Virus record (IMG/VR): IMGVR_UViG_3300020005_000004
Location: 4,336-68,335 of that record
DNA: 64,000 bases
DNA from: a virus
Strand: one strand, 5' to 3'
Part shown: positions 1-64,000 of the stretch, one piece after another
Position numbering within the stretch: position 1 is the first letter of the stretch
How the letters are laid out: each line of letters begins with the position of its first letter
Notes under the pieces: model-generated
Told to the model about the DNA's origin: nothing
Databases searched by the model: none
The model's input: only the letters and a program-made list of their open reading frames with translations
Position numbers and translations under genes: made by a program

Positions 1-22
1 TCCAGAGGGCTTAATAGCTACA

Positions 23-244
23 ATGAAATCAGACGGCATTCTTCTCCAATGGTACAGCGTTCCATTTGCAACAACTTACTGGATATCCAGAAGTGACAGG
101 GAAGCGTTAGGTGAAAAAGCTATCGCAATTATTACCGGAACAAGTTTTACCGATCATTACCCTGTTGCGGGAACTACTTATAAAGTTGCGGCAGTTGTGG
201 GTGATACTCTTGGAAACTTTTCAAATCCGGTAACTCCAATATAA
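23..244 (+). CDS. Small beta-rich (Fn3-like) protein, 5'-truncated by the window edge
   Basis: Near-identical to the C-terminal part of 46260..46562. Confidence 0.75.
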   Translation: MKSDGILLQWYSVPFATTYWISRSDREALGEKAIAIITGTSFTDHYPVAGTTYKVAAVVGDTLGNFSNPVTPI

Positions 245-534
245 TGGGAGCAAAATTTGATGCACTATTTAAGGCGTTTAAAGAAAATCCAACTGCTGCG
301 ATAATGACGCTATTGGTAATTGGCATTTCTGTTATGTTTGTTATCAATCAAAAAACTAATGAAGGCGTAAAAGATGATTTGAAGAAAGCTAATAAAGATT
401 GTGTTACTGAAAAATTTGTTCTTGCTACTCAAATGGATCAAATGAGAGGTCAGATAATTGATTTAACCGGAGCATTCAAAGAACTTAAAGGCGAAATGAA
501 TACACTTAGAAAACTTGGTATCGTAAAAGAATGA
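244..534 (+). CDS. Membrane-anchored coiled-coil protein (lysis region)
   Basis: One N-terminal TM helix then coiled coil; paralog of 46783..47070. Confidence 0.7.
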   Translation: MGAKFDALFKAFKENPTAAIMTLLVIGISVMFVINQKTNEGVKDDLKKANKDCVTEKFVLATQMDQMRGQIIDLTGAFKELKGEMNTLRKLGIVKE

Positions 535-1289
535 GAAAATATTTACCTATATTATTATTGTTTGTGGCTTGCAATAGCAGTTATGAAAAGGCAACTCCAA
601 TAACAGTAAGCGATAAACCATTAACAGATTCTATTTCTTTAATTGTAGATAGTTTAAAAGAATGGACAGAAGATATTTCTTCAGTTTCAAGTTATGCAAT
701 AAATGCACAAGCAAGGATTAAAGAGTTAGAAGAAAGAAAAGCACTAACACAGGCACAAGTTGAACATGAACCTTTTTATTTATCAATGATGAAGTCAGAA
801 GATTACAAGCCTACTGATGACAAGGACAAAGAAATTTACCGACTAACTCAGAAAATAAGAGAATATGAAAGGGAAATATCAAAGTTAAAGAATAGGTTAT
901 TTTACGATAGTATGATGAGAGTTGGGAAGATCGAATATGACCAAGTGCCTAACGAAGAAAAACCAAACGATAAAAGTTTAGTGATTACATTAAATAAGAA
1001 ATTACGGGGCGATGGTGACATTTCGGAACATGGTGTAAGTGTTTGGATAATGAAGTACACCAAGAAGGCAAAGAAACTATTCAAGGGGTATGAAAGTTGT
1101 CAGCAAAAAGACTTAAATTTATTAGATGCAAAAGAGGCAAGTTATTATAAAGGGCAGTATTTTTTTAATGACGTAGAACCTGGAAAGTATTTAATAAAAG
1201 TCTGTGCTTTGTTTGGAAACTGGATGGTGATTAATAAAAAAGATTATAAACAGGAGATTGAAATGTTGATGTCTCCGCCTATTCAATAA
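531..1289 (+). CDS. Lipoprotein
   Basis: Lipobox FVAC; shares YFFNDV.PG.YLIKVCA and MSPPIQ with 47067..47810. Confidence 0.75.
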   Translation: MRKYLPILLLFVACNSSYEKATPITVSDKPLTDSISLIVDSLKEWTEDISSVSSYAINAQARIKELEERKALTQAQVEHEPFYLSMMKSEDYKPTDDKDKEIYRLTQKIREYEREISKLKNRLFYDSMMRVGKIEYDQVPNEEKPNDKSLVITLNKKLRGDGDISEHGVSVWIMKYTKKAKKLFKGYESCQQKDLNLLDAKEASYYKGQYFFNDVEPGKYLIKVCALFGNWMVINKKDYKQEIEMLMSPPIQ

Positions 1290-1300
1290 AAATTAAAATT

Positions 1301-1591
1301 ATGAATGTAACAACTTCATCAAAACGGTTCAGTTTAAATGGTAATGATTTTATTAAGGGATTAATTGTGGCGGCACTTTCGCCTATTGTCCCAATTATAA
1401 CAGATACCATAAATTCAGGCAATCTTACTTTTGACTGGAAGAAAATTGCTCTTGCTGCATTGGGTGGCTTCGTTGCTTATATTGTTAAGAACTTCTTTGA
1501 CAAACCAAAAGTAGTTATCACCGATTTGAAAAACGACACAATCGAAGGGGTTCAGGACAAAACTATTGACGTTAAATTAACCACGAATTGA
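1301..1591 (+). CDS. Putative holin
   Basis: Two TM helices, charged C-terminus, lysis cassette; paralog of 47825..48118. Confidence 0.6.
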   Translation: MNVTTSSKRFSLNGNDFIKGLIVAALSPIVPIITDTINSGNLTFDWKKIALAALGGFVAYIVKNFFDKPKVVITDLKNDTIEGVQDKTIDVKLTTN

Positions 1592-2109
1592 AAAGGTGGT
1601 CGTTTATATTATTACTTGGACTCGTAGCCTGTAATACAGAAAAGAAAGCATTGTCCAAAACTCAGCTTTATCTTTTTAAACATCCTGAATTTTCTGCGGG
1701 TTATTGTGCTGAACAATTCCCTGATAAAGCGGATTCCGTAATAGTAAAAACCGATACCGTAACTGAGATTCAGTTTATGGATTCGATAGTTTTTGATACG
1801 GATACTCTTTACAAGGATTCATTAGGTTTTAAATACCGAACAATAACAAAGGTCGTAACCAAAACTATCACTAAGGATAACATAATTTACAGGGAAAACC
1901 GAGCAGAGCAAGAACGATTACAGCTTGCTCTGCTTTCTGCTAACAAAAACATTACAGACTTAATTGCAAAAAATACAATTTTAGAACAAGATAGAAACGA
2001 TTGGAAAGGGAAAGCTAAGACCCGTTGGTGGTGGATTGCCTTACTTATCGGTGGATTTGTGGGAACGATTGCTATTAAGGTATTTGGTAAAACGAAATTC
2101 CCGATATGA
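1588..2109 (+). CDS. Putative unimolecular spanin-like lipoprotein
   Basis: N-terminal lipobox LVAC, coiled coil, C-terminal TM helix; paralog of 48115..48639. Confidence 0.6.
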   Translation: MKRWSFILLLGLVACNTEKKALSKTQLYLFKHPEFSAGYCAEQFPDKADSVIVKTDTVTEIQFMDSIVFDTDTLYKDSLGFKYRTITKVVTKTITKDNIIYRENRAEQERLQLALLSANKNITDLIAKNTILEQDRNDWKGKAKTRWWWIALLIGGFVGTIAIKVFGKTKFPI

Positions 2110-2339
2110 CCAGATGGGATTCTACAGATTGGGCTATTATAATTTTAGCTCTATCAATTCCAATTGCTGAACTTGGATTAATAATAATGAGAATATTCAC
2201 AAATTCACCTTTATCAGATAATGCAGCAAATGTTATTGACGGGATAACTAAAATAATAGGAGGTGGTCTAATTTCAATTCTTTCAATAAGATACGTTAAC
2301 AATAAACACAAAAAAGAAAATGACACAAACAACACTTAG
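2106..2339 (+). CDS. Small two-TM protein (holin/antiholin-like)
   Basis: Two hydrophobic segments; DW...I.GG.I pattern as in 49501..49707. Confidence 0.55.
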   Translation: MTRWDSTDWAIIILALSIPIAELGLIIMRIFTNSPLSDNAANVIDGITKIIGGGLISILSIRYVNNKHKKENDTNNT

Positions 2340-2562
2340 AAAATTAAAGGATCAGGCAAAGTTCAAACTTTCAAAAAGAAGTAAAGTTATTTATACTAAA
2401 CAAACCAAGTGGAGAAGATCCGGAGGGTTGATGGCTTATGTCTTTACTTCTGATTCAAGCGGATTGACTTTTAAACGGGTGGGAAGTGTGAAAGTATGGC
2501 TTGTAGAGTTCATGGTAAATAAATCAACTGGATCAACGGTTGCAAGAAAACAAAAGAAATGA
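2320..2562 (+). CDS. Basic hypothetical protein
   Basis: ORF overlapping neighbours; absent from copy B. Confidence 0.5.
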   Translation: MTQTTLRKLKDQAKFKLSKRSKVIYTKQTKWRRSGGLMAYVFTSDSSGLTFKRVGSVKVWLVEFMVNKSTGSTVARKQKK

Positions 2563-3137
2563 TTACTGAAAAAGCGTTTAATGATTCAGCTACACTTTTA
2601 GGAGTAGAACCGGCAACAATCAAAGCGGTGGCAGAAGTTGAAAGTAAAGGAAGTGGATTTCTACCAAGTGGGCATCCGGTTGTACTTTTTGAGCCTCATG
2701 TCTTTTGGGCAGAACTTAAAAAGCGTGGAATTGACCCCAAAATGATCACAGGGGCTTCAGACATCCTTTATGAGAAATGGACAACAGGTAAGTACGGGAA
2801 AACTTCAGCCCAACCTGAACGCTTAAAACGGGCAATAGCGATAAGCAAAGATGCAGCCCTTTCTTCGGCAAGTTGGGGCAAGTTTCAAATAATGGGGTAT
2901 AACTACGGCCTTGCCGGATTTTCAGACGTTGATTCATTTGTTGCAGCCATGCACATTGACGAAGATCAGCACCTTAATGCCTTTATAAATTTCGTTAAGA
3001 ATAAGAACTTGGTTGATGAACTTCAAAGAAAAGATTGGGCGGGGTTTGCTCTTGGTTACAACGGTTCAGGATATAAGCAGAATAAGTATGATGAAAAGTT
3101 GGCTACTGCGTATAACAAGTTTAAGGGATCGCTTTAG
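2559..3137 (+). CDS. Endolysin, N-acetylmuramidase (DUF3380 family)
   Basis: AVAEVES.G, LFEPH, SASWG.FQIMG.N and YNG..Y..N.YD motifs. Confidence 0.9.
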   Translation: MITEKAFNDSATLLGVEPATIKAVAEVESKGSGFLPSGHPVVLFEPHVFWAELKKRGIDPKMITGASDILYEKWTTGKYGKTSAQPERLKRAIAISKDAALSSASWGKFQIMGYNYGLAGFSDVDSFVAAMHIDEDQHLNAFINFVKNKNLVDELQRKDWAGFALGYNGSGYKQNKYDEKLATAYNKFKGSL

Positions 3138-3152
3138 TTTCTACTTCCTTTC

Positions 3153-3284
3153 TTAATTAAAAACATGAAGCACTTTATCCAAGAATAAAAACATACCGTA
3201 AGCGCATAGCGTTCCAAGTATAAAGGCTATATATCCTTTTATCATTGTTTTTTGTAGGTTATTCATTCTACGATCCTTTTTCAT
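3153..3284 (-). CDS. 43-aa membrane peptide (not in ORF track)
   Basis: MKKDRRMNNLQKTMIKGYIAFILGTLCAYGMFLFLDKVLHVFN preceded by AAAGGAGG. Confidence 0.5.
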   Translation of the reverse strand: MKKDRRMNNLQKTMIKGYIAFILGTLCAYGMFLFLDKVLHVFN

Positions 3285-3303
3285 GTGTTCCTCCTTTGGG
3301 GTT

Positions 3304-3711
3304 TTATAGATTGTTTTGTTTTTTAAAATCTTGCCATTGTCCCGCTATTTGTTCTGCTGTAAACTCTCCTGTTTTATAAAACGAGTGCATATTAAAAATC
3401 AATCCTTTCAGTCTTTCCTTCTCTGCTTTTAGTTCCTCTATTGATAAATCTCTATGAAGTATAGCTTTTGAATATTTGCTTTTCCATTCCTCTATTTGTT
3501 TGGATTGTTCTTCGGCAACTTTTCTATAACTCATTGCGGTTCGTTCCCAAGTTTCGGCATGGTCTTTCAATTCTTCACACTCCTTCTCTTTCTCCTTTAA
3601 TGAGGATTGAAGGGCGGTGATTTGGTCATCTTTATTACCAAAATATTTATCAAGTGCGATTGACCAATCGGTTATGCTTCGGTAGTCTTTGCTTTGTGGT
3701 ATGTCTGACAT
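3304..3711 (-). CDS. Early coiled-coil hypothetical protein
   Basis: Shares LQSSL.EKEKEC.ELK and QSKQIEE with 50297..50854. Confidence 0.7.
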   Translation of the reverse strand: MSDIPQSKDYRSITDWSIALDKYFGNKDDQITALQSSLKEKEKECEELKDHAETWERTAMSYRKVAEEQSKQIEEWKSKYSKAILHRDLSIEELKAEKERLKGLIFNMHSFYKTGEFTAEQIAGQWQDFKKQNNL

Positions 3712-3714
3712 AGT

Positions 3715-4005
3715 TTATAATTTATTTTCTTTTTGATATTGCTGCCATCTATACCCCGATATTTCCTTATCGGCAAGCGGATATATAATGTTATAATTAT
3801 CCTTAACTTGTCTTTCTAATAATAATTTTATCCGGGCATTCTCCTTTTCCAATTCTTCCCGCCCATCGGTTGCAAGTTGGTAACCGGAAATAAAGGCTCT
3901 TCTACTTGCTGCGTTTGCATCATATTCACCAATTACTCCCGCTTCCATATCAACAGGGAATAATTCTTTTGCCTTATCCATTATCGGTTTCGGTATAGTT
4001 GACAT
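3715..4005 (-). CDS. Early hypothetical protein
   Basis: Shares MSTIPK and QLATDGREELEKE with 50297..50854. Confidence 0.7.
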   Translation of the reverse strand: MSTIPKPIMDKAKELFPVDMEAGVIGEYDANAASRRAFISGYQLATDGREELEKENARIKLLLERQVKDNYNIIYPLADKEISGYRWQQYQKENKL

Positions 4006-4010
4006 TGTTT

Positions 4011-4274
4011 TTATTTTTGGTTTGATTTAGGTTTCTTTTTTGGTGGAATCATTTTTAGTTCATGGCTATATGAAGCACTATTAATATCCCACTTTACATC
4101 ATGCGTCTTGCCGTCTACGTTCATCGGATGAATAATAAAATGGTCTTTATCTTGCATACCAACTCTAAACTCAATTATTCCTTGTGCGTAATACTCTTCA
4201 AGATACTTACACAGCTTACGGCCTATTCTATCCATAGCCATGTCTTTTTTTATTTTATCTGGTATTGTATTCAT
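4011..4274 (-). CDS. Hypothetical protein
   Basis: Tightly packed leftward ORF with A-rich start. Confidence 0.6.
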   Translation of the reverse strand: MNTIPDKIKKDMAMDRIGRKLCKYLEEYYAQGIIEFRVGMQDKDHFIIHPMNVDGKTHDVKWDINSASYSHELKMIPPKKKPKSNQK

Positions 4275-4310
4275 AATTTTTATTTTTTAAGACGGAAGCG
4301 GTTTAGAGAT

Positions 4311-5216
4311 TTAGAGTTTATTTTTCCTTTTGAACTTTTGCCAAGAATCTTCTTTGTTTTCAGGCCATTCAACTCGTTTTACTTCATGTTCAATCAACCC
4401 CTTCAATCTTTCAACTTCCTTTTTCAACTCCTCACAGTCTCGGTGGGCAGATAATCTTTTTATTAACTCCTTTGCCCTTGCAACACATCTTTCTATTTCT
4501 TCATAGGCGATTCCTTTTACGCTGCCGCCATCATAATTCTTTTCATGCAATAAATGTTCAGATGCCCATATCAATATTTCCAAAACTGTTTTTGTGTTGA
4601 ATGGTTGGTCATTATCAAGCGGCAACTCCTCACAGTCTCGGTCACCTGTGCGTATCTCTGATTGACTTGATTCGTTTGGGATAATATATTTTTCATCAGT
4701 TGGGATGCATTCTTCTTTTGTTGCTATTAATGAAATGCCGTCTGTTCTATCCCAAACATAATAATCATCACCGTCAATTTTATACAACTTTCCTATTGTT
4801 AAATAGTCTCCTACTTTTGGCTCTCGGTCACCTGTGGGGGAGGGGGAAGGAAGGCACAAATCATTAACTTTTTTATCAATGGTAAATTGAACATATTCCG
4901 TCATGTGAAACCACCACAGCCACCAACTATACATTCGCTCCTGAATAGGCCAATTACCATCTCCTTTTTTTACGTCAGGAACAAACCTTCTTTGATAATA
5001 ATCCTGTTGGTTGATGCAATATGTTTTAAAAGAAATCAAATCACCAACAGAAAGAAGCATGAGATTACCACCAAGTATTATATTTTCTTTTTCAATCAGA
5101 GAAGCGCAAATTCCGTCTGAAGATTTTGGATAAATATTACTCATATAATTTTTATTTTCTTCTTTTTCTGAAGAAGTAGCACAGGGTTCTATGGCCTTTT
5201 CTTTTTTATTATCCAT
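4311..5216 (-). CDS. Mosaic early protein with internal repeated junction motifs
   Basis: IEPCATSS, PSPTGDRE, TGDRDCEEL and RDCEELKKEVERLKGL segments. Confidence 0.7.
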   Translation of the reverse strand: MDNKKEKAIEPCATSSEKEENKNYMSNIYPKSSDGICASLIEKENIILGGNLMLLSVGDLISFKTYCINQQDYYQRRFVPDVKKGDGNWPIQERMYSWWLWWFHMTEYVQFTIDKKVNDLCLPSPSPTGDREPKVGDYLTIGKLYKIDGDDYYVWDRTDGISLIATKEECIPTDEKYIIPNESSQSEIRTGDRDCEELPLDNDQPFNTKTVLEILIWASEHLLHEKNYDGGSVKGIAYEEIERCVARAKELIKRLSAHRDCEELKKEVERLKGLIEHEVKRVEWPENKEDSWQKFKRKNKL

Positions 5217-5670
5217 TATGGTATTTTTTAAATAGTTCAGGCCATCTCTTGCCTCTTTTTATATCTGATACTGTACTTGGGTCAAGGTTATATCCTTTTG
5301 CGATTTGCTTATTTGGTACACCTGTTTTCAACAGGTCGTATATTTCTAACACTTTAGCTTCGGAAAGTTTTGACCTGTTGTGTGATTCGCCTTGTTTCTT
5401 AGCCTTCAATTTGGTTCTTATACTTTCATTAAAATCATACTTACGATGACATGAAGTGCATAGTTGTAAATAATCTTCAGGATTTGAAGAGTACTCGTGG
5501 CCTTCCCTTAAACACCATTCATACCTTTTAGCCGTTGTTGATTTACAATGCTCACATTTAGCCGCATTACCATAATTATTAATAATGCTTTTGTGAAACT
5601 TGTTATGTTTCCATTTTGGTATGTTGCCGACCATTTTCATATTACTCATTATTTTCGTCAAGCCATTCAT
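5209..5670 (-). CDS. HNH-like endonuclease with C-terminal HTH
   Basis: C..C...RYEW and LCTSCHRKYD; GESHNRSKLSE..V and STVSDIKRGKRW; real start may be a downstream Met. Confidence 0.7.
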   Translation of the reverse strand: MNGLTKIMSNMKMVGNIPKWKHNKFHKSIINNYGNAAKCEHCKSTTAKRYEWCLREGHEYSSNPEDYLQLCTSCHRKYDFNESIRTKLKAKKQGESHNRSKLSEAKVLEIYDLLKTGVPNKQIAKGYNLDPSTVSDIKRGKRWPELFKKYHNG

Positions 5671-5875
5671 AAACTTTTAATTTTTTAGGCAACCCTGTAT
5701 AAGAATCGTATTGCGATGGATGCTCCCAATGTTGCAAATTCCAAACCGACCCAGTATTCCAACACCCTGGTTTATCATCTTCATATCTTACTTTGACATG
5801 ATAATTTTTTCTAACTTCTGGCAACCGATCTGAGCATTTCACCCATCTGCATCCCTGCCTATTATTATTTTCCAT
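5642..5875 (-). CDS. DUF551-like small protein
   Basis: WVKCSDRLPE motif. Confidence 0.6.
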   Translation of the reverse strand: MENNNRQGCRWVKCSDRLPEVRKNYHVKVRYEDDKPGCWNTGSVWNLQHWEHPSQYDSYTGLPKKLKVYEWLDENNE

Positions 5876-5877
5876 GA

Positions 5878-6150
5878 TTAAAAGTTTGAGGGTTTATTTT
5901 TGAGTTGCTCATAATGAAGTTCGTAAGCGAGTTTGGTTAATGATTGTAATGCGCTTTTAAATTTTTCTTCAGTTGCTCGCCCTGCTAAATACTCTTCAAT
6001 CCAATACATACAATTTTGCATATACTCTATGGTTGTAGTTTCTTTTACAGGGGGTATAAATTTATATCTTGGCTTTAATGTTCTTGCTTTCTTTTTAAGC
6101 ATACTATCATAAAATCTTTGTTGGTCTGGTGTTCTCGCCGCCCGTTTCAT
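5878..6150 (-). CDS. Hypothetical protein
   Basis: Coupled leftward ORF. Confidence 0.55.
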   Translation of the reverse strand: MKRAARTPDQQRFYDSMLKKKARTLKPRYKFIPPVKETTTIEYMQNCMYWIEEYLAGRATEEKFKSALQSLTKLAYELHYEQLKNKPSNF

Positions 6151-6461
6151 ATACTTGGTTTATTTGGTAGTGGCATTGATTTTAATCTTTCTAAATATTT
6201 TATCACATTCCAATAAGCTATATCCATGTCAGTATGGTTTTCGGAATTTGCCGTAACCCATGTTTTCAATTCTGCAATTAAATCTTCAACCCTCGTCAAT
6301 CCCTGCCTATTGAGGGAGGCGGCAAACATGGCATCAATTATCGCTTGGTAAACATTTGGTGTCGTTCCTTTGCATCTTAGCCAATCCCAATGAGGAACTT
6401 CAATAGCCAAAAGAATTGATTCCAATTCGTCATATTTTTTATCTTCAATAGTAGGTGTCAT
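6147..6461 (-). CDS. Hypothetical protein
   Basis: MTPTIE start shared with 52699..53082; ASLNRQG shared with 52156..52695. Confidence 0.65.
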
Positions 6462-6979
6462 AGTCTTTTATTGTTTGTATCGTTAAAATTCAATCTTGCA
6501 AATTCTCCATAATACTTTATTGCCGCTTTATCGTATGCTTTTGCAGCTTCTTCTTTAGTTGCGAAACATCCCAAATGTATTTGATTGCGCTTGTAGCCTA
6601 TTTTTGCTGACCATGTTTTACATCTGGCATCTTTACATATTCCTTTAAAACCAAGTTTATTTTCTTTAGTCTTACTACGATTTGCCTGATTTTGGCCATT
6701 GGTTGCTTTCCTTAGATTTGATTTTTGATTATTTAATCCATTTAGGTCTCTATGATCTACGGCTATTTTATTACCTTTTAATTTCATTATTTCTCTGTGC
6801 ATAAAAACCTTTCTTCTTTTAACGTTTGGCAAAATAGAACACCTATAAGCATAATCACTCGTTCTATTTTTAAACCTTGTTATGTGCCAATTAAATTGAT
6901 TTAAGTATTCATAATCTTCATCATCAACAAGTATTTCAACTGCTGCGTATTTTTTAGCGAATGACAGTATTTTTTTCAT
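6458..6979 (-). CDS. HNH-AP2 homing endonuclease
   Basis: [31 protein letters not shown]...EEAAKAYD; start set at MKKIL. Confidence 0.88.
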
Positions 6980-7259
6980 ACGGCTTTTTAAGTGTGAACA
7001 AAAGATATGATCCTTCTGTGTTTTTTGAAATATTGTACTTATAACCGAAAACCTCATTAAACAATTCAATTTTATCAGCCATTAAAATAGGTGAACAATC
7101 AACTTCAATTCCTATAATGTTCTCAGAAGGTGATTCACGGCGAATCCTTATTGTGTATCTGGAAAGGATTAAAGCCGATTGTAATACTTCGTAAGCAAGG
7201 TTACCCTTTAGAACGCTGAATGAATCCTGAACGCTTACGGTTGTTTTTAAATTTAGCAT
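6954..7259 (-). CDS. Hypothetical protein
   Basis: [10 protein letters not shown] start identical to 53392..53727, remainder unrelated. Confidence 0.65.
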
Positions 7260-7287
7260 GGTTTTAATTTTTTGGTTTGTTAATAAA

Positions 7288-7320
7288 AGTCGGAGCTTAC
7301 TTTCGATTCAGCCCCGAACT
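7288..7320 (-). promoter_or_regulatory. RNA hairpin with AAUCGAAAGUA apex in the leftward early transcript
   Basis: Same apex but a different stem at 53986-54012. Confidence 0.6.
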
Positions 7321-7328
7321 CTAACTAT

Positions 7329-7562
7329 TTAAGATTTGTAATAAATGATTCCAATTCTTTCGTTGTTTGATTTTCTGCTAAACCAAATATGGCTGCCACC
7401 CCTACCAAAATGAAGTCCAGATTTATTAATAATGCCAGAAAATTGTAGCTCTAATATCAAATAATCTCCATTTATATCGCAATTAGTTTTTGATACATAC
7501 GAAAACAATGGGCTTAAGAATCTAAACTTTTCAGATTCTATTTTAAAAGATTTAGTTGTCAT
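7329..7562 (-). CDS. First gene of the leftward operon, hypothetical
   Basis: Start reassigned to MTTKSF, just downstream of the predicted promoter. Confidence 0.6.
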   Translation of the reverse strand: MTTKSFKIESEKFRFLSPLFSYVSKTNCDINGDYLILELQFSGIINKSGLHFGRGGSHIWFSRKSNNERIGIIYYKS

Positions 7563-7592
7563 TTTGTTAGAGTTTAATTGTGAATGATGATG

Positions 7593-7686: not shown

Positions 7687-7690
7687 TCAA

Positions 7691-56632: not shown

Positions 56633-56817
56633 AACTTTTACTTCCAAACGGAACAAAAGAAAAAGAGGTTCATTATTATTCAACTAAAGAATGGAAGTCT
56701 TTAATAAATACTTGGATTGAATTGTACGGGGCAAGGATTGAGAATTATTTTATTCATATAGTTCCAGATCGTGAAGGAAACAAACATTTGAAAAACCAAA
56801 AATATAAACTACAATGA
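56617..56817 (+). CDS. Hypothetical protein
   Basis: Paralog of 9606..9800. Confidence 0.7.
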   Translation: MPGTIKLLLPNGTKEKEVHYYSTKEWKSLINTWIELYGARIENYFIHIVPDREGNKHLKNQKYKLQ

Positions 56818-57290
56818 AAGAAATAATAGTTTAGTCTAAAAAATATGGTACTAAAATAGTTCTTTTAGATGACGAAGACTTTGCATTGGTTTCTAATTAT
56901 ACGTGGTGTGTTATAAACGGGAGATGTACATTCTATTCACAAACCAAAATAAAAGATAAGACGGTATTAATGCACAGGCTAATATTGGGACTAAATGACC
57001 CTAAAATACCTTGTGATCATCGTGACCATAATGGGTTAAACAATCAAAGGAATAATTTAAGGATTTGTACTCACGCTCAAAATTTATGCAATAGAAGTCC
57101 AAATAAAAACGGTACATCTAAATATCTTGGTGTTAGTTGGGATAAGGAACATAGAAAATGGAAGGTTTTAATACATAACAAATTTCTCGGAAGATTTAAT
57201 TTAGAAACAGATGCGGCTAAAGCGTATAATAAAGCGGCAAAAGAAATACACGGCGACTTTGCAAACTTAAATCCAATACCGTTTAATTAG
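56814..57290 (+). pseudogene. HNH-AP2 endonuclease with in-frame TAG at codon 7
   Basis: MKEIIV*SKKYGTKIVLLDDEDF continues in frame into the 56886 ORF; TAG at 56832-56834. Confidence 0.75.
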
Positions 57291-57391
57291 AAAACCCAGA
57301 GCTTAGGGGAACGGTGAATGAGGCAAGGCAAAAGGAAGGGGAGGAAGTTAGAAGGGAGATTTAAAATGTGGATAACTTATTTTGATAAATG

Positions 57392-57423
57392 TTTGCAGGT
57401 ATCAAAGTAAATGGTTAGCTTTG
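57392..57423 (+). promoter_or_regulatory. Bacteroidota-type promoter
   Basis: TTTG-N20-TAGCTTTG, 16 nt before ATG 57440. Confidence 0.7.
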
Positions 57424-57439
57424 GTAAAAATTAACCAAA

Positions 57440-57625
57440 ATGAAAATCACAATCAATTTAACACCGAATGAAGTTGCCGCTTTAAAGGCATACTTAAAAG
57501 AAGTTAGCCATGATATTAATCCTAAGATCACTAAAAAAGATATTGAAGAAGAAATAAAGGGGGCTGTTTCTGGTCACTTACAAGCCGGTTCGTTAGGCGA
57601 TTATTACCAACAATTTAATAATTAA
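57440..57625 (+). CDS. Hypothetical protein
   Basis: Follows the promoter. Confidence 0.6.
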   Translation: MKITINLTPNEVAALKAYLKEVSHDINPKITKKDIEEEIKGAVSGHLQAGSLGDYYQQFNN

Positions 57626-57629
57626 TATT

Positions 57630-57899
57630 ATGCCAAAAAATAAAGAAACTATTTTGCATTGGAAAGCAGACACAAAGGCTCTGTTTGAAGAGATAATTAG
57701 TTGTGGTGGTAGTATGTGGATTATGCAGCAACCATTAAAGATATTACATTCAATTATGTTAGAAGCTGCTCATCATGCGATGGAAATACAAGACGAAAAA
57801 ATGATTGCTATAATGGCAAGGCTTGGTCTTTACGAAGCCTGTAATCCTAAACACAAAGACCACAAAAAAATACTATCACTTATAAACAAATTTTATTGA
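57630..57899 (+). CDS. Hypothetical protein
   Basis: Operon position. Confidence 0.6.
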   Translation: MPKNKETILHWKADTKALFEEIISCGGSMWIMQQPLKILHSIMLEAAHHAMEIQDEKMIAIMARLGLYEACNPKHKDHKKILSLINKFY

Positions 57900-58352
57900 A
57901 TGACAAAACAAGAAACAAGGGGCGGCAAACGTGAAGGATCAGGCCGCCCCAAATCTGCCCCAACTAAAACACTTTCATACCGAGTTCCTTTGAAACTTGC
58001 CGCTAAGATTGATAAAGAAATCAGAAAAATAATTACCAACATGAAAGCATTAATATTTTTATTCCTGATGTGTTGTATCGCTTCCCTTTGTTCCTGTTCA
58101 AAATCATGGGAAGACATTGAGATCATGCCAGCAGCTAAGAAAGTTTTTATACTAAGTAAACGGTTTACAAACCCGCCTTCTTTGAACCAGGACAAGACAT
58201 GGAAGCCTTACAAGATCATTACGGAAGAAATTAAAGGGGTAGATTGGCAGGGGTATTATGGAGTAAAGGCAGACACTTTAATTTCGACTTGTTCAATAGA
58301 CAAAAGGGATTCATTATTTAAGATCGAAATAAGAACTTTTGAAATAAGATGA
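57900..58352 (+). CDS. DNA-binding-like N-terminus in frame with a lipoprotein (internal start 58041)
   Basis: RGGKREGSGRPK then MKALIFLFLMCCIASLCSC. Confidence 0.6.
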   Translation: MTKQETRGGKREGSGRPKSAPTKTLSYRVPLKLAAKIDKEIRKIITNMKALIFLFLMCCIASLCSCSKSWEDIEIMPAAKKVFILSKRFTNPPSLNQDKTWKPYKIITEEIKGVDWQGYYGVKADTLISTCSIDKRDSLFKIEIRTFEIR

Positions 58353-58398
58353 GGGTTTGTGATCGGGATTTATTTGAGAGAAGAATTTATATTGTAAA

Positions 58399-59469
58399 AT
58401 GAAACACGGATCACTATTTTCTGGGATTGGAGGCTTTGACCTTGCTGCTGAGTGGATGGGTTGGGAAAATATGTTTCATTGTGAATGGAATCCTTTCGGA
58501 CAAAAAGTTTTAAATTACTATTGGCCTAATGCAAAAAGTTATGGAGATATTACCAAAACAGATTTTACAGAATGGAGAGGAAAAGTTGACATTGTTTCCG
58601 GTGGATTTCCTTGTCAACCATACTCACAGGCGGGGAAACGAAAAGGAAAGGAAGATGACAGACACCTCTGGCCTTCGATGCTTAGAGCAATTAAAGAAAT
58701 TCAACCAGGTTGGATCGTTGGCGAAAACGTTTCTGGCTTGCTTAATTGGTCAGGGGGATTGGTACTCGATGAGATCAAGGCTGATTTTGGAGCTGCGGGG
58801 TTTGAGGTCTTCCCACCACTTGTACTGCCAGCTTGCGCCGTCAACGCTCCCCACAGAAGAGATAGGGTTTGGATTGTTGCCCACTCCACAAGCATCAGAA
58901 ATAAAAGATGTGGGGACGAATATGGAAAATCTACGGAAGTTGCCACCGAAGGAAAGACTAAGCCGAATATTGGCACATGGCTTAATGCCAACACCTACGG
59001 CATCAGACAAACCAACGAATATAAATCCAACTCAGTTGAAGGATACGGTAAGCGGTTTTGTAACGAATGCCATGTACCCGACTCCAACGGTAATGGATCA
59101 CATGATGATAAAAACGGGGAGGAAGGATTCAAACTTGGAGCAAGGCGGGAGGCACTCAGTAACATTAATGGGAATGGCAGCGAAGGGTTATTTGCCAACT
59201 CCAAATGCTTCGGACAACAGGGACAGAGGCGGCCCAGCGAATTCATCGGTACAAAGGAGAATGGAAATAGGAAAGCAAGTTGGTCTTACGATGATGGTAG
59301 ATGGCCGACTGTCTCCCCACTTTGTGCTGGAAATGATGGGCTATCCACCAAATTGGACGGAATTGCCTTTTCAAAATGGGCAACCGAATCAATCAAAGGA
59401 GCAGGAAACGCAATAGTTCCCCAAGTAGCTTATGAGATTTTTAAAGCAATAGAGGCAATGGAAAAATAA
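58399..59469 (+). CDS. C5 DNA cytosine methyltransferase, main (alpha-like) frame
   Basis: LFSGIGG, GGFPCQ, ENV, PHRR.RVW, GNAIVP; motif IX missing. Confidence 0.92.
   Translation: MKHGSLFSGIGGFDLAAEWMGWENMFHCEWNPFGQKVLNYYWPNAKSYGDITKTDFTEWRGKVDIVSGGFPCQPYSQAGKRKGKEDDRHLWPSMLRAIKEIQPGWIVGENVSGLLNWSGGLVLDEIKADFGAAGFEVFPPLVLPACAVNAPHRRDRVWIVAHSTSIRNKRCGDEYGKSTEVATEGKTKPNIGTWLNANTYGIRQTNEYKSNSVEGYGKRFCNECHVPDSNGNGSHDDKNGEEGFKLGARREALSNINGNGSEGLFANSKCFGQQGQRRPSEFIGTKENGNRKASWSYDDGRWPTVSPLCAGNDGLSTKLDGIAFSKWATESIKGAGNAIVPQVAYEIFKAIEAMEK
58769..59416 (+). CDS. Nested +1-frame methyltransferase subunit (beta-like)
   Basis: Four xPTP repeats and motif IX-like RLSPHFVLEMMGYPPNWT; frame open from 58529, start at ATG 58769 inferred. 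Confidence 0.72.
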   Translation: MRSRLILELRGLRSSHHLYCQLAPSTLPTEEIGFGLLPTPQASEIKDVGTNMENLRKLPPKERLSRILAHGLMPTPTASDKPTNINPTQLKDTVSGFVTNAMYPTPTVMDHMMIKTGRKDSNLEQGGRHSVTLMGMAAKGYLPTPNASDNRDRGGPANSSVQRRMEIGKQVGLTMMVDGRLSPHFVLEMMGYPPNWTELPFQNGQPNQSKEQETQ

Positions 59470-59471
59470 AT

Positions 59472-59615
59472 TTTGTTTACTGGCTCTTTGTTTTTATATT
59501 AGCGTACTTATTTTTAGTACGGATTTTGCAGATGAAGAGTGAATCATTCGCAAAATCTTATTTCAAGATTAAATAGTCGGTAAAGGTTTCACTCCCTGAG
59601 CCGGCTTTTTTATTT
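59472..59615 (+). promoter_or_regulatory. Promoter plus two-hairpin leader/attenuator of the replication gene
   Basis: TTTG-N19-TATATTAG; hairpins 59522-59557 and 59575-59606 followed by a T run. Confidence 0.7.
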
Positions 59616-59616
59616 A

Positions 59617-60261
59617 ATGGAAGGGAAAAAATCTTTCGTTCTTTATTCTGACATAATTCATACCGTCAAGAAACTACCTAATAACAAGGCGGGAGAACTG
59701 TTTAAATTAATCCTTTCCTATGTAAATGATGAAAACCCCACTACAAAAGATTTAGCCGTTGATCTTGCATTTGAGCCAATTAAACAGCAGCTTAAAAGGG
59801 ATTTAAAGAAATGGGATGATGAGAAAAAGCAAAGGAGTGAAGCCGGAAAAAAGGGTATGGAAAGTAGGTGGCATAACAAAAGTATAACAGAAGATAACGG
59901 TGTTAAAAGTGTTATAACGAAAATAACTGATAATGTAATTGTTAATGTAAATGAGAATGTAAGTACAATACAGAATATAGATATAGATCACAACTTGGAA
60001 CTTCCGGAAATGAAAATTAATAATGCAATCGAATATTTAAGCAGAACAAGAAAAACGGAAGCTGACCGTGACTTAGTATTAACCCTATGGACTGCATTTA
60101 AAGAAAAGAATTTCACCGGCGAAAAATTTTACAAATCAGAAGCTAAAATATTCGGACACTTTTTTGAAACTTTAAAATTTGAAAAAATAAATGGACATCC
60201 AATTACTTCAACAAAGCTTGGAACCAGCGAAGCAAGAAATAACGCAGTCACTAAGTGGTGA
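59617..60261 (+). CDS. Putative replication initiator (DUF6291-like N-terminus)
   Basis: KKSFVLY.D, AG.LFK.I..YVND; C-terminal block almost identical to 11979..12659. Confidence 0.72.
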   Translation: MEGKKSFVLYSDIIHTVKKLPNNKAGELFKLILSYVNDENPTTKDLAVDLAFEPIKQQLKRDLKKWDDEKKQRSEAGKKGMESRWHNKSITEDNGVKSVITKITDNVIVNVNENVSTIQNIDIDHNLELPEMKINNAIEYLSRTRKTEADRDLVLTLWTAFKEKNFTGEKFYKSEAKIFGHFFETLKFEKINGHPITSTKLGTSEARNNAVTKW

Positions 60262-60712
60262 TGAAAAAAGATTCTTGTATTTTGTTGAACAGAAGAAAAT
60301 AAAAGACAGGCCTGAAATTGATCTAAGGAACGCTTTAAAGTGGGCAATGGTAAAGGTTGGACTAAGGGGAGCAAATTTTCCTAAAGGCCTTGACAAGTCT
60401 GTATTGCTTACACACATCTTTGAAAATTACGGCAATCATACTCCTGATGAAGTTAGGCTGGCTTTTGATTTAGCAGTTACCGGAAAACTTTCTTTAGATG
60501 CAAATGAGGTAAATTGCTATGAGAGTTTTTCTTGTTTATACTTTTCTAAAATTATGAACGCTTATAGGGTTTGGGCTAACCAAGTTTATGAGCAACATAA
60601 AAAAACAGAGCAGCCGCAGATAGAATACAAACCCGACATTGCACAAATCGAAAAAGAATATCAGGAGTTTTTACAAACAGATTTAGGAAAGAAACTTAAT
60701 CCAAAGATTTAA
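60191..60712 (+). CDS. Putative replication accessory protein
   Basis: E...AF.LA..GKL, FS..YF..I..AY; ends as 12559..13083. Confidence 0.55.
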   Translation: MDIQLLQQSLEPAKQEITQSLSGDEKRFLYFVEQKKIKDRPEIDLRNALKWAMVKVGLRGANFPKGLDKSVLLTHIFENYGNHTPDEVRLAFDLAVTGKLSLDANEVNCYESFSCLYFSKIMNAYRVWANQVYEQHKKTEQPQIEYKPDIAQIEKEYQEFLQTDLGKKLNPKI

Positions 60713-60740
60713 TTTTTTCTGACATACTAAAAATGAGAAA

Positions 60741-61028
60741 ATGAGCGGAATGATAAAAATGACTTGCGAGGGATGCCAAAAGGTTTACGACCTTAAAAAA
60801 ACAAATGAAATTCCTTCTAATGTTTTCTTCATGCGTTGTAATTGGTGTCCTTGCTGTGAAGATAAAGCAGAAGGATATTGGGAAGAATGGTGGGACGAAA
60901 ATGAAAACGACCCAAACAAACCACAACCAATTCCTGTTGGTGATAATCAATTAGTGATGCCATTTATATTTGATGAATTAGAAATAAAAGAACTCCAACT
61001 TTTAAATGAAAGCAATCAGAATATATAG
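60741..61028 (+). CDS. Zinc-finger-like hypothetical protein
   Basis: CEGC and CNWCPCC. Confidence 0.6.
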   Translation: MSGMIKMTCEGCQKVYDLKKTNEIPSNVFFMRCNWCPCCEDKAEGYWEEWWDENENDPNKPQPIPVGDNQLVMPFIFDELEIKELQLLNESNQNI

Positions 61029-61278
61029 CGGTGAAGGGATTTATTCACCTGAAGCCTTAATTGAACTTGCTTCTCCAATGATCAAGCAAGCCAAAGAAGA
61101 TCGGCAATATCTTTTCACGTGGAACACTCCCAAATGGTATTTAAGCGAAGTTTACGGCTATTTAAAACACAACAAGGATTTACCCGAATTGAGTCGGCAA
61201 AGAAAACTGGATCTTTGGAATGAGGCAAAAAAGGATAAATTACTTTACTTATCTTTATATCTCATTGAAGTAATATGA
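61006..61278 (+). CDS. Hypothetical protein
   Basis: Coupled to TerS. Confidence 0.55.
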   Translation: MKAIRIYSGEGIYSPEALIELASPMIKQAKEDRQYLFTWNTPKWYLSEVYGYLKHNKDLPELSRQRKLDLWNEAKKDKLLYLSLYLIEVI

Positions 61279-61670
61279 GTGGAAGGCCTATAAAATATTC
61301 AGAAGCATACATTAAGAAAACTAAGGAATATATTGATTTATGCGAAGATGAATTAGTACAAGTTGTCTCAGGGGAATCAGAAAAATTTACAGCGTTCAAA
61401 GAAAAGGTAAGGGTTAAGATTCCAACTATTGAAGGATTAAGTCTTTATCTAAAAATTCACAAGGACACAATTTATGATTGGGAGAAAAAATATAAGCCAT
61501 TTTCCGACGTTATTAACATATTACGAGCAAAACAGGTTGATAATCTGATTAATAAAGGTCTTTCTGGTGACTACAATCCTATAATTGCAAAAGTGCTTCT
61601 ATCTAAACAAGGCTATTCGGAAAAGACTGAAACGAATATCACTACTCAGGACGTTGATTTTACTTTCTAA
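61275..61670 (+). CDS. Terminase small subunit (gp3/Sf6-like DNA-packaging family)
   Basis: GRP.KY, PTIEGL..YL.I...T.YDW, GL.G.YN..IAK..L. Confidence 0.8.
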   Translation: MSGRPIKYSEAYIKKTKEYIDLCEDELVQVVSGESEKFTAFKEKVRVKIPTIEGLSLYLKIHKDTIYDWEKKYKPFSDVINILRAKQVDNLINKGLSGDYNPIIAKVLLSKQGYSEKTETNITTQDVDFTF

Positions 61671-62914
61671 TGAAGATAAAAACCCCACAGCTTTCAGACT
61701 ATCAGAAGCAAATGATAGATAGTCCCAAAAACACAATCACAGAAGCAGGGACTAAAATAGGCAAGACGGTTTCGCATATGTGGTGGTTATTCAGGGAAGC
61801 TCAACAACCCCATGTCCAGGTGGGTTGGAATTATTGGTGGGTAGCTCCGATCAACGAACAGGCTAAAATCGCTTTTAACCGAATTTGCGCTAAGATTAAG
61901 GGCAATCCGAACTACACGATTTACAATTCATCTCCTTACACGATAGTGACTCCAAAAGGTACTAAAATCGTTTTCAGGAGTGGTGACGATCCTGATTCAC
62001 TTTATGGAGAGGATGTTTACGGAGTTGTGATCGACGAAGGGTCAAGGATGAAAGAAGGGGCTTTTCATGCAATACTTTCCACAACAACAGCAACAAATGG
62101 ACGGATCAGATGTATAGGAAACATGAGGGGGATTGACAATTGGTACTATCAGCTTGCGAGAAAGGTTCAGGATGGACTTTTACCAACTTGGGAGCATTTT
62201 AAGTTCACGGCTGACGATGCGGTTAAAGCCGGAATATTGACACAAGAGAAAATTGACGAACAAAGGGCAATTTATCCAGAGGGAATATTTTTAGAGTTGT
62301 TCTATTGCATTCCGTGGATTAACCTTGCCAATAAATTCGCTTTCAGTTTTAATACAGCAAAGCACGTTGGTAAAACCGAATTTAATCCTGATTATCCTTT
62401 ATACATTAGCTTTGATTTTAACGTTAGTCCAATATCATGCAGCACTTTTCAACATTACAATAATAAAATATTTGGCATTGAATCAATTAAATTATCAGAC
62501 TCAAACATTTATAAACTATGCGACGTTATTCATACCAAATATCCAAAGGCTTTAATAATTGTGAATGGAGATGCTACGGGAAATTCCAGGAGCGCACTTG
62601 TTTTGGATAGTTTGAATTACTATAAGGTCATAAGAAGCAAATTAAATCTTTCGCCTAATCAGGTTAAAGTGCCGACAATAAACCCTACTATGGCCGAAAA
62701 TCAATTATTGGTAAATGCCATGCTTGAGCATTACCCAATAACCTTAGACGCTACAAATTGTGCGGCATTGATTCACGACCTTATGTTCGGAGAAATGCTT
62801 GCTGATGGCAAGATAAAGAAAGGCGATAGAGAAGACCCTAATCAACAATTGGATTTATTAGATTGTTTTCGCTATTATTTAAACCAAAATTTTAAGTGGT
62901 ATCTCAAGATATAA
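61670..62914 (+). CDS. terL: Terminase large subunit
   Basis: ATPase half almost identical to 14574..15830; nuclease half diverged. Confidence 0.92.
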   Translation: MKIKTPQLSDYQKQMIDSPKNTITEAGTKIGKTVSHMWWLFREAQQPHVQVGWNYWWVAPINEQAKIAFNRICAKIKGNPNYTIYNSSPYTIVTPKGTKIVFRSGDDPDSLYGEDVYGVVIDEGSRMKEGAFHAILSTTTATNGRIRCIGNMRGIDNWYYQLARKVQDGLLPTWEHFKFTADDAVKAGILTQEKIDEQRAIYPEGIFLELFYCIPWINLANKFAFSFNTAKHVGKTEFNPDYPLYISFDFNVSPISCSTFQHYNNKIFGIESIKLSDSNIYKLCDVIHTKYPKALIIVNGDATGNSRSALVLDSLNYYKVIRSKLNLSPNQVKVPTINPTMAENQLLVNAMLEHYPITLDATNCAALIHDLMFGEMLADGKIKKGDREDPNQQLDLLDCFRYYLNQNFKWYLKI

Positions 62915-62929
62915 TTAGTATATTAGTTT

Positions 62930-63406
62930 ATGAAAGAAATCAAACTAACACAGGGGATGGTTGCCTTAGTTGATGACGAAGACTACGAACTATTGAATCA
63001 ATATAAATGGTATCCTCAAAAGGGGCATAAAACGTTTTACGCTACAACAAGTAGAGCAGTTTTAATGCACCGTTTGATATTAGGATTAAACGAAACAAAT
63101 ACTTATTGCGACCACGAGGATCATAACGGTCTTAATAATCAAAAATCAAATCTGAGGATATCTACCAACTCTCAAAATAGTATTAATTCACGCAAGAGGG
63201 CGAACACTACTTCTAAATATAAAGGGGTATGGCTTACTAAAAGCAAGTACAAGGATAAGACTTATTTATATTGGCAAGCGAGGGTAAATAAAGATAAAAA
63301 GGTTTTTCATTTGGGGTATTTTAAAAACGAACAGGAAGCAGCTATTGCCTATAATTTAAAAGCGACTGAGCTATTCGGAGAGTTTGCAAATCTGAATAAA
63401 TTTTAA
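62930..63406 (+). CDS. HNH-AP2 homing endonuclease (copy B only at this site)
   Basis: [40 protein letters not shown]. Confidence 0.9.
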   Translation: MKEIKLTQGMVALVDDEDYELLNQYKWYPQKGHKTFYATTSRAVLMHRLILGLNETNTYCDHEDHNGLNNQKSNLRISTNSQNSINSRKRANTTSKYKGVWLTKSKYKDKTYLYWQARVNKDKKVFHLGYFKNEQEAAIAYNLKATELFGEFANLNKF

Positions 63407-63449
63407 CTTCCCTGAAACATTGGCAAGGATAATGTAGTATATTTACCTT

Positions 63450-63638
63450 ATGTTAGATAAAGAAATCCATGTTCACGTCCATCACGAAAGGGATTGTGAA
63501 GTTATAAATCTCCTTACAGAGATAAGGGATTTGCTTAAAAAAAATGATGGGGAAGATTTAGGCAAACAGATGGATCAATGGTTGTTAGTTCTTAAGGGTT
63601 CTTTATCCAAGATAAAAGCGATAAGCGAAAAAGTTTAA
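63450..63638 (+). CDS. His-rich small protein
   Basis: IHVHVHH echoes the N-terminus of 15843..16127. Confidence 0.6.
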   Translation: MLDKEIHVHVHHERDCEVINLLTEIRDLLKKNDGEDLGKQMDQWLLVLKGSLSKIKAISEKV

Positions 63639-63667
63639 TAATTATTAATAATAAAAACTAAAATCTC

Positions 63668-63880
63668 ATGCCTACAAGACAAGAAGATTTCGATCAATTG
63701 GTTTCCGATCTTAATACGGTCACTAATGACATTGCCGCAGATTACGAAAAACTACTCGGCGAAATTCAAAATAATTCAGTAAGCGCAGAATCAATTGCAG
63801 CCGCAAAGGTTAATATTGACAAGCTAAAAGCACTTGGAGCATCGGTTGACAATCCAGTTCCAGAACCTCCGACAACTTAA
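63668..63880 (+). CDS. Small coiled-coil protein
   Basis: Ends PTT like 15843..16127. Confidence 0.6.
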   Translation: MPTRQEDFDQLVSDLNTVTNDIAADYEKLLGEIQNNSVSAESIAAAKVNIDKLKALGASVDNPVPEPPTT

Positions 63881-63906
63881 TTATTTTTTGTGGTTAATGG
63901 TTTTTT

Positions 63907-63937
63907 GAAACCGGATATTTCCATATTCGGTTTTTTG
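63907..63937 (+). terminator. Terminator-like hairpin
   Basis: AAACCGGATAT-TTCC-ATATTCGGTTT then T run; identical at about 16153-16183. Confidence 0.7.
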
Positions 63938-64000
63938 TATTATATTTAAATCTGATAAGAGAAGGGGTTAGAGCCTTCCCTACAGTCAACTTCTGATCCC

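Follow-up and report, generated by a model that had tools for sequence, protein, structure and literature searches.

The stretch of DNA analyzed here (the window) comprises 64,000 nucleotides, bases 4336–68335 of a 68,335-bp IMG/VR metagenomic virus contig (G000) that is classed as 'linear'. It carries a single-copy middle region, M, containing glycosyltransferase and methyltransferase genes followed by virion genes, between two arcs in which lysis genes, early operons and the large terminase gene (TerL) occur in the same order. A 116-nt non-coding element, S, follows each arc. The parts of the window are as follows.

1–16130, plus strand: arc A, a fragment of phage X in the present reading, collinear with arc B (26% aligned, mean identity 81%); its start, within a tail-fibre-like gene, lies 4,335 bases beyond the left edge of the window, and it contains lysis genes, two early operons (one leftward, one rightward) and TerL
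16131–16246, plus strand: S copy 1, 116 nt, non-coding, identical to the terminal 116 nt at the right end of the contig
16247–43445, plus strand: middle region M, single copy, with no internal repeat; its virion genes (PHROG matches) encode a 1020-aa lysin/tape-measure-like protein, a 737-aa virion protein, a portal-like protein and further structural ORFs
43446–63884, plus strand: arc B, part of phage Y in the present reading, with a tail-fibre-like gene, genes for lysis, two early operons (one leftward, one rightward), the small terminase subunit gene (TerS), TerL and, after TerL, an extra HNH gene
63885–64000, plus strand: S copy 2, the last 116 nt of the contig, an exact match to 16131–16246
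16131–63884, plus strand: proposed complete circular map of phage Y (S, M and arc B), 47,754 bp, which is also the period between the two S copies

Genes that bear on the comparison of the two copies, A and B, are the following.

2559–3137, plus strand: endolysin of copy A, 192 aa, 87% identical to that of copy B
8016–8906, plus strand: RecT-like annealing protein, copy A only (phrog_148, E = 1.5e-57)
11287–11835, plus strand: DNA methyltransferase cassette of A type, 182 aa (phrog_757, E = 9e-66)
14574–15830, plus strand: TerL of copy A, 418 aa, assigned by tblastn to annotated phage terminase genes and a weak Terminase_3 match
49704–50273, plus strand: endolysin of copy B, 189 aa (phrog_1224, E = 1e-72; phrog_2860, E = 3e-62)
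58399–59469, plus strand: DNA methyltransferase cassette of B type, 356 aa, of a different family (phrog_363, E = 2e-69)
61275–61670, plus strand: TerS of copy B (phrog_606, E = 6e-13)
61670–62914, plus strand: TerL of copy B, 414 aa, 87% identical to that of copy A

Two diverged copies in head-to-tail order

Self-BLAST of the window returned 19 collinear direct matches with identities of 70–98% and E-values down to 0, extending from a leftmost pair at 1–246 and 46319–46564 (87.4%, offset 46318) to a rightmost pair at 16092–16246 and 63845–64000 (91.7%, offset 47754). An earlier note on this DNA had described a collinear recurrence of 1–16246 at 46319–64000 with the offset changing between these two values, and had called the copies mosaic and the endolysin and TerL close; each of these observations was confirmed. 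In the whole contig, for which the note had proposed a self-comparison to count units, the repeat extends further to the left: bases 1–20581 of the contig are collinear with 47781–68335, such that the first 20,581 and the last 20,555 bases constitute copies A and B and the contig holds 1.43 units. The part of copy A that can be aligned to copy B amounts to 5,261 of 20,581 bases (26%). One exception to collinearity was seen, a gene for a 340-aa protein immediately outside the left edge of the window (contig 3256–4278), the copy-B homologue of which (53% identical) is shifted to window 48636–49514. Apart from TerL and the endolysin, proteins common to both copies are 39–89% identical, and many genes of one copy have no counterpart in the other.

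In headful terminal redundancy and in replicative concatemers the repeats are identical and usually amount to a few percent of the genome. The present arrangement resembles both in its head-to-tail order without a junction feature; however, the overlap corresponds to 43% of the unit and is highly diverged, far beyond headful redundancy as the note had stated, and with 26% aligned at a mean of 81% the copies lack the identity of a concatemer or terminal redundancy of one genome.

Much of the divergence lies in cassettes. The RecT-like protein of copy A has no blastp match in copy B, where the corresponding slot encodes an unrelated 232-aa protein (phrog_862, function unknown; window 54686–55384). 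TerS of copy B matches TerS families, whereas the TerS candidate of copy A matches neither these families nor TerS of copy B. The differences in annealing gene, methylase and TerS that the note had listed were therefore borne out; no SSB was identified. As to the different regulators that it had claimed, copy B encodes a 70-aa HTH protein (window 54383–54595), and the 123-aa divergent ORF of copy A (window 7329–7700) gave no matches. NinG/Rap-like nucleases are encoded in both copies. Pfam searches with ten proteins gave only sub-threshold matches (Terminase_3, 20 bits; SHOCT, 19.5 bits), and most structural proteins of this phage group have no PHROG family match. Modular mosaicism with cassettes in fixed slots is characteristic of lambdoid-type phages, and the non-homologous annealing protein, methylase and TerS cassettes found here in fixed slots, flanked by short conserved segments that in some cases lie at gene boundaries, are of the same kind. 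Such mosaicism is a property of a population, and does not show that both versions reside on one molecule.

Contig ends and related genomes

The last 116 nt of the contig are identical to contig bases 20466–20581 (window 16131–16246), so that the contig breaks off where an internal site that it had already traversed recurs exactly. A further 30 exact matches of at least 25 nt occur between copies A and B, the longest of 59 nt; the stop site is thus the sole A/B repeat longer than 59 nt. S lies after TerL and a 94-aa ORF, and contains a terminator-like hairpin (16153–16180), with a second starting at its last base (16246–16265). The 240 nt around S are 98.75% identical to a related contig, G002, the flanks of which are only about 80–85% identical. 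When an exact 40-nt core of S was searched for in IMG/VR, G002 was the only match, and no further contig showing the continuation of S in X was found by this search. At the left end of the contig, exact identity with the homologous site extends over 12 nt. The exact match at the right end suggests that the contig consists of a 20.5-kb fragment of X and a closed 47,754-bp circle of Y, with S copy 1 as the probable point of a false join.

The same behaviour was observed in the closest long contigs, all three of which (G000, G001 and G002) wrap round a circle and end on a site already used. G001 ends on a 126-nt exact match with a period of 46,377, and G002 on a 106-nt exact match with a period of about 47,331; the end overlap of G002 spans 741 bp at 91.5% identity and passes through a variant stretch before the exact 106 nt. 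G000 runs through 20.5 kb of variant sequence before it reaches its 116-nt exact match. G004, which is more distantly related, measures 46,275 bp; it has a terminal repeat of 87 bp that is exact, a single TerL and a structural module that is collinear. A still more distant contig wraps with an overlap of 4,054 bp at 100% identity, the outcome that a single population yields. The three relatives examined whole (G001, G002 and G004) are single units of 46.3–47.3 kb with which M is collinear. The contig is therefore longer than the unit genome of this group (68,335 bp versus 46,275–47,754 bp).

A search with TerL gave 52 metagenome loci, including 18 close relatives (L017–L034), two of which are metagenome copies of G001 and G002. 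These 18 are mosaic and mostly short fragments, 64–99% identical to G000 in patches. The middle regions of the relatives differ by 10–30%. Megablast of window 16247–41000 against 50,697 phage records gave no match, and tblastn of TerL found only relatives of less than 60% identity. A capsid-region protein (window 39394–40563) matched seven loci in IMG/VR, none of which is a candidate for a middle region belonging to X itself, and no separate contig with such a region was found in IMG/VR or elsewhere, in searches from which records of the source sample may have been excluded.

Variants and depth in public soil runs

Related sequences were also examined in public soil runs, represented by short Logan contigs of up to 2.4 kb, which offer neither read pairs nor long reads across S or the middle region. 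Sequences of A type, of B type or B-like, and of further variants were present side by side in all four runs. In run X1, 72 of 159 contigs were at least 99% identical, 38 were 95–99%, 22 were 90–95% and 27 were below 90% identical. Joints and loose ends in the runs match B alleles letter for letter, alongside A alleles, and include further cassette types; the methyltransferase slot is polymorphic across the runs. No pieces or loose ends at S were present among the matches listed.

In X1 the depth was 4.45 for the late part of arc A, 5.35 for M and 5.9 for arc B, with pieces from the early part of arc A at 9.4–13.9. In X2 the corresponding values were 6, 10.8 and 11.4–11.7, all parts lying at about 6–11.7. 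These depths are compatible with a 1:1 molecule accompanied by other variants sharing the early part of arc A, or with separate genomes, and do not refute a 1:1 molecule. Summed depth in X2 was 13–38 over the first 6 kb of M and 7–25 over arc A, and many positions in this part of M were mixed. The earlier note had named doubled coverage or mixed SNPs over the middle as evidence against its own reading; this was observed loosely, and only within these 6 kb. In X5, B-like contigs had a depth of 23–33, about six times that of exact A pieces (3.7–5.1); these contigs are not proven to be exactly B, since the variant lacks the methylase cassette.

Origin of the 68.3-kb sequence

The 68.3-kb sequence is very probably a path through a metagenome assembly graph, i.e. 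an assembly artefact, and not one molecule. The observed parts of this explanation are the exact 116-nt closure, the unit length of the relatives, the like behaviour of a sister contig and the co-occurrence of variants. A group of related phages with circular assembly maps of about 46–48 kb inhabits these soils. The assembler may have begun with some 20.5 kb belonging to one of them, X, from the tail fibre through the lysis and early genes to TerL, and then reached S, a non-coding terminator region that would be exactly common to X and a second member, Y. The path would next have made one full turn of Y, through S, the structural middle and the tail fibre, lysis, early genes and TerL of Y, and halted on meeting S again, as those words had already been used. 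We infer that the join from X through S to M is the false one, rather than that from M to arc B, and that a diverged middle region belonging to X is present elsewhere in the sample. The hetero-concatemer or tandem array proposed in the earlier note, one molecule with two alleles of these modules, is not supported in view of the exact stop, the single-unit relatives and the co-occurring variants, to which its mundane alternative, a metagenomic chimera formed at a stretch that two related phages have in common, conforms. A stop on a repeat is also to be expected from an assembler presented with a real hetero-concatemer; it shows an ambiguous path, not a wrong one.

A different course of the same artefact was also considered, in which the circles of X and Y share the whole 27-kb middle as well as S, such that the path follows arc A, M and arc B on a theta-shaped graph, or in which the first 47,780 bases are a complete genome to which arc B was added. 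Base 1 of the contig is homologous to the base immediately after M (contig 47781), the position expected for a path starting at a branch point, and in X2 the first 6 kb of M, with many mixed positions, exceed arc A in summed depth. However, if the contig started at a branch point, a long exact overlap would be expected there, where only 12 nt are exact, and exact M pieces in X1 are not doubled relative to the late part of arc A and arc B. Such a graph also needs two shared nodes rather than one, and an identical shared M would require very recent exchange, given how far apart arcs A and B and the middles of the relatives are; we regard it as unlikely. A real molecule would arise if co-infecting X and Y had recombined at S into a head-to-tail X–Y replication intermediate that was then sequenced. 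The exact 116-nt stretch shared at S, the RecT-like protein of copy A and the NinG/Rap-like nucleases of both copies, the similar depths of late arc A, M and arc B in X1 and X2, and the co-occurrence of A-type and B-type sequences in all four runs are in keeping with this. Short-read assembly cannot distinguish such a co-integrate from two circles sharing S, however, and the closure of three related genomes at 46.3–47.3 kb argues that the packaged, heritable form could not be a dimer of some 95 kb. Replication intermediates make up a small part of bulk soil DNA. Furthermore, the same wrap-around in G002, over just 741 bp, points to assembler behaviour, and the sixfold depth of B-like contigs in X5 also counts against a co-integrate to the extent that these contigs, not proven to be exactly B, represent Y. 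A real co-integrate is thus very unlikely, and it is correspondingly hard to credit that one was formed at S by the RecT-type and Rap-type functions of the phages themselves.

Two genomes would also lie on one molecule if a pair of related prophages had entered a single site of a bacterial genome in tandem, or if a stable episomal dimer were present, and tandem integration at one site would likewise yield an unbroken circular-permutation order across the junction. However, a six-frame search of the whole contig gave no match to Phage_integrase, Resolvase, rve or Peptidase_S24 at E ≤ 1, while positive controls were detected. The absence of integrase reported in the earlier note therefore held over the whole contig, as did that of the tyrosine and serine recombinases and rve transposases, for which it had suggested a search of the flanks; its statement that there is no CI-like repressor agrees with the Peptidase_S24 result, alongside which a single sub-threshold HTH_3 match was seen. 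The tRNA search found none, and Rfam at gathering thresholds gave no matches in the whole window. The contig ends contain no host genes, the left lying in a tail-fibre-like gene and the right in the S region. A TerL scan of one genome from each of 185,579 species found no close relative; its single match, a distant MAG contig of 39% identity, gave neither a host nor a prophage context. Judged from these enzyme families, the contig ends and the TerL scan, tandem prophages or an episomal dimer are extremely improbable.

An assembly chimera has precedents. In its treatment of IMG/VR, the CheckV paper (Nayfach et al., 2020; PMC8116208) regards contigs in which genome copies are concatenated as probable assembly artefacts, and states that another artefact, chimeras between closely related viruses, is not detected by CheckV; misassembled contigs in which two or more smaller phage genomes are strung together are described elsewhere (PMC10747093). 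The present contig resembles the concatenated ones in its excess over the unit genome and its head-to-tail repetition; however, the cases described there repeat the same genome, with a k-mer frequency well above 1, whereas the copies here share few k-mers. With the chimeric contigs as portrayed in these two sources, it has in common two related genomes joined via a shared exact stretch amid many co-occurring variants. It differs from simple end-to-end hybrids in that the join leads into a full turn of a second circle, mimicking a tandem dimer. A k-mer or exact-terminal-repeat test would probably not catch it. The record is in fact rated 100% complete and 'linear', whereas closed relatives of 46–48 kb are rated only 73–83% complete, which indicates that chimeras of excess length escape the usual repeat and k-mer checks when their copies are diverged. 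Such chimeras can distort references for genome size and completeness.

The usable genome is the 47,754-bp circle at window 16131–63884, and the first 20.5 kb of the contig are best regarded as a separate partial genome. If the X–Y co-integrate were nevertheless real, S would be a natural crossover hub at which this soil phage group swaps whole genome arms. As biology, the arrangement is of little import, two genomes on one molecule being most likely the walk of an assembler through a mixture of related phages. The underlying phage group is little known, and has clear mosaicism of the cassette type.

Organization of the contig and its closure

The window spans positions 4336-68335 of a single 68,335-bp IMG/VR virus contig (G000), which is classed as 'linear' with a CheckV completeness of 100%; the window has a G+C content of 36%, contains no N and yielded no tRNA in a search. 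Self-BLAST of the window gave 19 collinear direct matches, from 1-246 versus 46319-46564 through 16092-16246 versus 63845-64000, reproducing the offsets of 46318 and 47754 given in an earlier note. On the full contig the repeat extends to both ends (contig 1-20581 versus 47781-68335). Copy A (contig 1-20581) and copy B (contig 47781-68335) are strongly diverged: the alignment covers just 5,261 of the 20,581 bases in copy A, at a mean identity of 81%. As had been noted, the endolysin and TerL are close (87% protein identity each); the remaining common proteins are 39-89% identical, and for much of the leftward early operon the protein comparison gave no match in the other copy. The differences noted earlier in three gene slots were borne out: the annealing slot holds a RecT-like protein in A and an unrelated 232-aa protein in B, the methylase slot holds methyltransferases from different families, and the unrelated TerS products comprise a match to small-terminase families in B and a candidate without a match in A. 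The sole clear break in collinearity concerns homologous genes at contig 3256-4278, shortly before the window starts, and window 48636-49514 (53% identity over 316 aa), which precede the lysis-region genes in A and follow them in B.

The last 116 bases of G000 are identical, letter for letter, to contig 20466-20581 (window 16131-16246). This element, S, lies in a non-coding region 3' of TerL and a 94-aa ORF, contains one terminator-like hairpin, with a second starting at its last base, and has no match in Rfam. Besides S, there are 30 exact A/B matches of at least 25 nt, the longest being 59 nt. Since the copies of S lie 47,754 bp apart, G000 reads as arc A (20,465 bp; contig 1-20465, window 1-16130) leading into a closed circle made up of S, a 27-kb single-copy middle (M; window 16247-43445) and arc B (window 43446-63884).

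The 240-nt non-coding segment at window 16128-16367 (contig 20462-20701), with its two terminator-like hairpins, is the node through which the assembly forms its loop. Its identity is 98.75% in the related contig G002, 95% and 89% in the metagenome loci L027 and L024, and only about 70-83% in other relatives, with flanking genes about 80-85% identical; it looks recently exchanged or functionally constrained.

Unit size and co-occurring variants

A TerL search of IMG/VR returned the relatives G001 (46,527 bp) and G002 (48,073 bp), each of which traverses the same gene order once. G001 closes through a 149-bp overlap (99.3% identity, 126 nt exact). The self-overlap of G002 spans 741 bp with an identity of just 91.5%, and the last 106 nt of this contig exactly match its positions 637-742. 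All three long contigs thus end on an exact 106-126-nt match to an already-used site, and two of them pass through other-variant sequence before closing (741 bp in G002, 20.5 kb in G000). A more distant relative, G004 (46,275 bp, 50% G+C), encodes a single TerL and has an exact terminal repeat of 87 bp; its structural module is collinear. CheckV completeness is 73%, 83% and 73% for G001, G002 and G004, with circular closure or a terminal repeat at 46-48 kb; the CheckV size reference for the G000 group may be inflated. In one 61,446-bp metagenome contig of a distant relative (TerL 42% identical), TerL is present twice because 4,054 bp are common to both ends with 100% identity (period 57,283 bp); this same-genome wrap-around is the outcome expected of a single population.

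A metagenome scan with the TerL alignment gave 52 loci, including 18 close relatives (two being metagenome copies of G001 and G002) that match G000 at 64-99% identity in mosaic patches, mostly as 1.5-24 kb fragments. Part of an A-specific 10-kb stretch occurs in 15 public runs, labelled mainly as soil metagenomes and in two cases as freshwater or freshwater sediment, and 90-92% of its words occur in four of these. The contigs of four runs (X1, X2, X5 and X7), all short, were placed on window 2500-22499 at >=80% likeness. All identity classes are present in each run; the 159 contigs of X1 comprise 72 at >=99%, 38 at 95-99%, 22 at 90-95% and 27 at <90%. Several joints and loose ends match copy B letter for letter: a 17-nt joint between 13058 and 13428 equals window 60688-60704 and replaces ORF 13080-13412 in all four runs, a 6-nt joint between 3122 and 3281 equals window 50268-50273, and three loose ends reproduce copy B at window positions 53034, 53733 and 61619. 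Other loose ends represent a variant lacking the methylase cassette (X5, X7) or a cassette foreign to G000 (X1). A-type, B-type or B-like, and other variants therefore co-occur in all four runs.

Depth in two public runs
X1: A-early exact pieces 9.4-13.9; A-late 4.45; M 5.35; B-type joint 5.9
X2: A-early exact pieces 7-11.3; A-late 6; M 10.8; B-type joint 11.4-11.7

These depths fit M and B belonging together and are also compatible with a 1:1 molecule. In X5, B-like contigs, a variant not proven to be B, reach 23-33, versus 3.7-5.1 for exact A pieces. In X2 and X5, summed depth and mixed positions are higher over the first 6 kb of M than over arc A; for that part only, this loosely resembles the doubled coverage or mixed SNPs over the middle that the earlier note would have counted against a joint molecule.

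Origin of the double structure

G000 is very probably an assembly artefact. The path would start in a fragment of one phage, X, reach S, which is exactly common to X and a second phage, Y, circle the Y genome once and end on its second encounter with S. As a single shared node is sufficient, this is the simplest account. Were X and Y instead to share the entire middle, two shared nodes would be required, and the start of the contig does not support this variant; exact identity with the homologous site at the left contig end covers the first 12 nt only, in an alignment at 82.6%. Similar products have been described: genome-repeating IMG/VR contigs are probable assembly artefacts according to the CheckV paper, which also names chimeras between closely related viruses among the artefacts that still escape detection (PMC8116208), and a wastewater study reports misassembled contigs concatenating two or more smaller phage genomes (PMC10747093).

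A real hetero-concatemer, as inferred in the earlier note next to a tandem array, would lead an assembler to behave alike, so that the structure alone is no disproof. The family packages genomes of 46-48 kb, the sister contig G002 shows the same behaviour over just 741 bp and the runs give direct evidence of related variants occurring together, which makes a real, heritable double genome quite improbable. Tandem prophages or an episomal dimer are more improbable still: prophages are unlikely because neither an integration enzyme of the families searched nor a host flank was found, and no close relative was found among one genome each from 185,579 species. In agreement with the earlier note, which saw no integrase across one complete period, Phage_integrase, Resolvase, rve and Peptidase_S24 had no match at E<=1 in six frames of the whole contig, in which positive controls were detected; HTH_3 gave one sub-threshold match in this search.

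Gene content and cassette boundaries

Both copies encode NinG/Rap-like nucleases, together with several HNH endonucleases.

HNH endonuclease genes (window coordinates)
5209-5670 (-), HNH endonuclease, weaker match
6458-7069 (-), HNH endonuclease
9797-10270, HNH endonuclease
13469-13864, HNH endonuclease
51135-51440 (-), HNH endonuclease
56886-57290, HNH endonuclease
62930-63406, HNH endonuclease

There are three or four HNH genes per genome copy, and four of all these genes are phrog_99 paralogues (42-46% identical). The gene at 62930-63406, 3' of TerL and confined to copy B, explains most of the local offset change. Directly after S and ahead of the virion genes, window 16537-22577 contains two glycosyltransferase-family and three methyltransferase-family matches, and may encode a DNA- or surface-modification module. 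In the structural stretch 31751-46238, 15 of the 16 ORFs tested had no PHROG match at E<=0.001, the lone match being a weak portal (35361-37118). No match to window 16247-41000 emerged when 50,697 phage records were searched by megablast; the lineage of G000 is poorly represented among known phages.

Run contigs omit entire genes almost to the base, such as the HNH gene 9797-10270 in X5 and the small ORFs 4011-4274 and 5878-6150 in X5 and X7, and four or more alternatives occur at the methylase slot (window 11287-11835): the A type, the B type, no cassette at all and a further cassette. The leftward early operons and regulatory regions (3281-8000 versus 50274-54738) encode largely unrelated proteins and have 13 exact islands of 25-50 nt in common. 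Four of these straddle gene boundaries in both copies; in a crude simulation of random placement (2,000 trials) the mean was 0.34, and at least four occurred in 0.05% of trials. The islands look like conserved boundary linkers and could guide cassette exchange.
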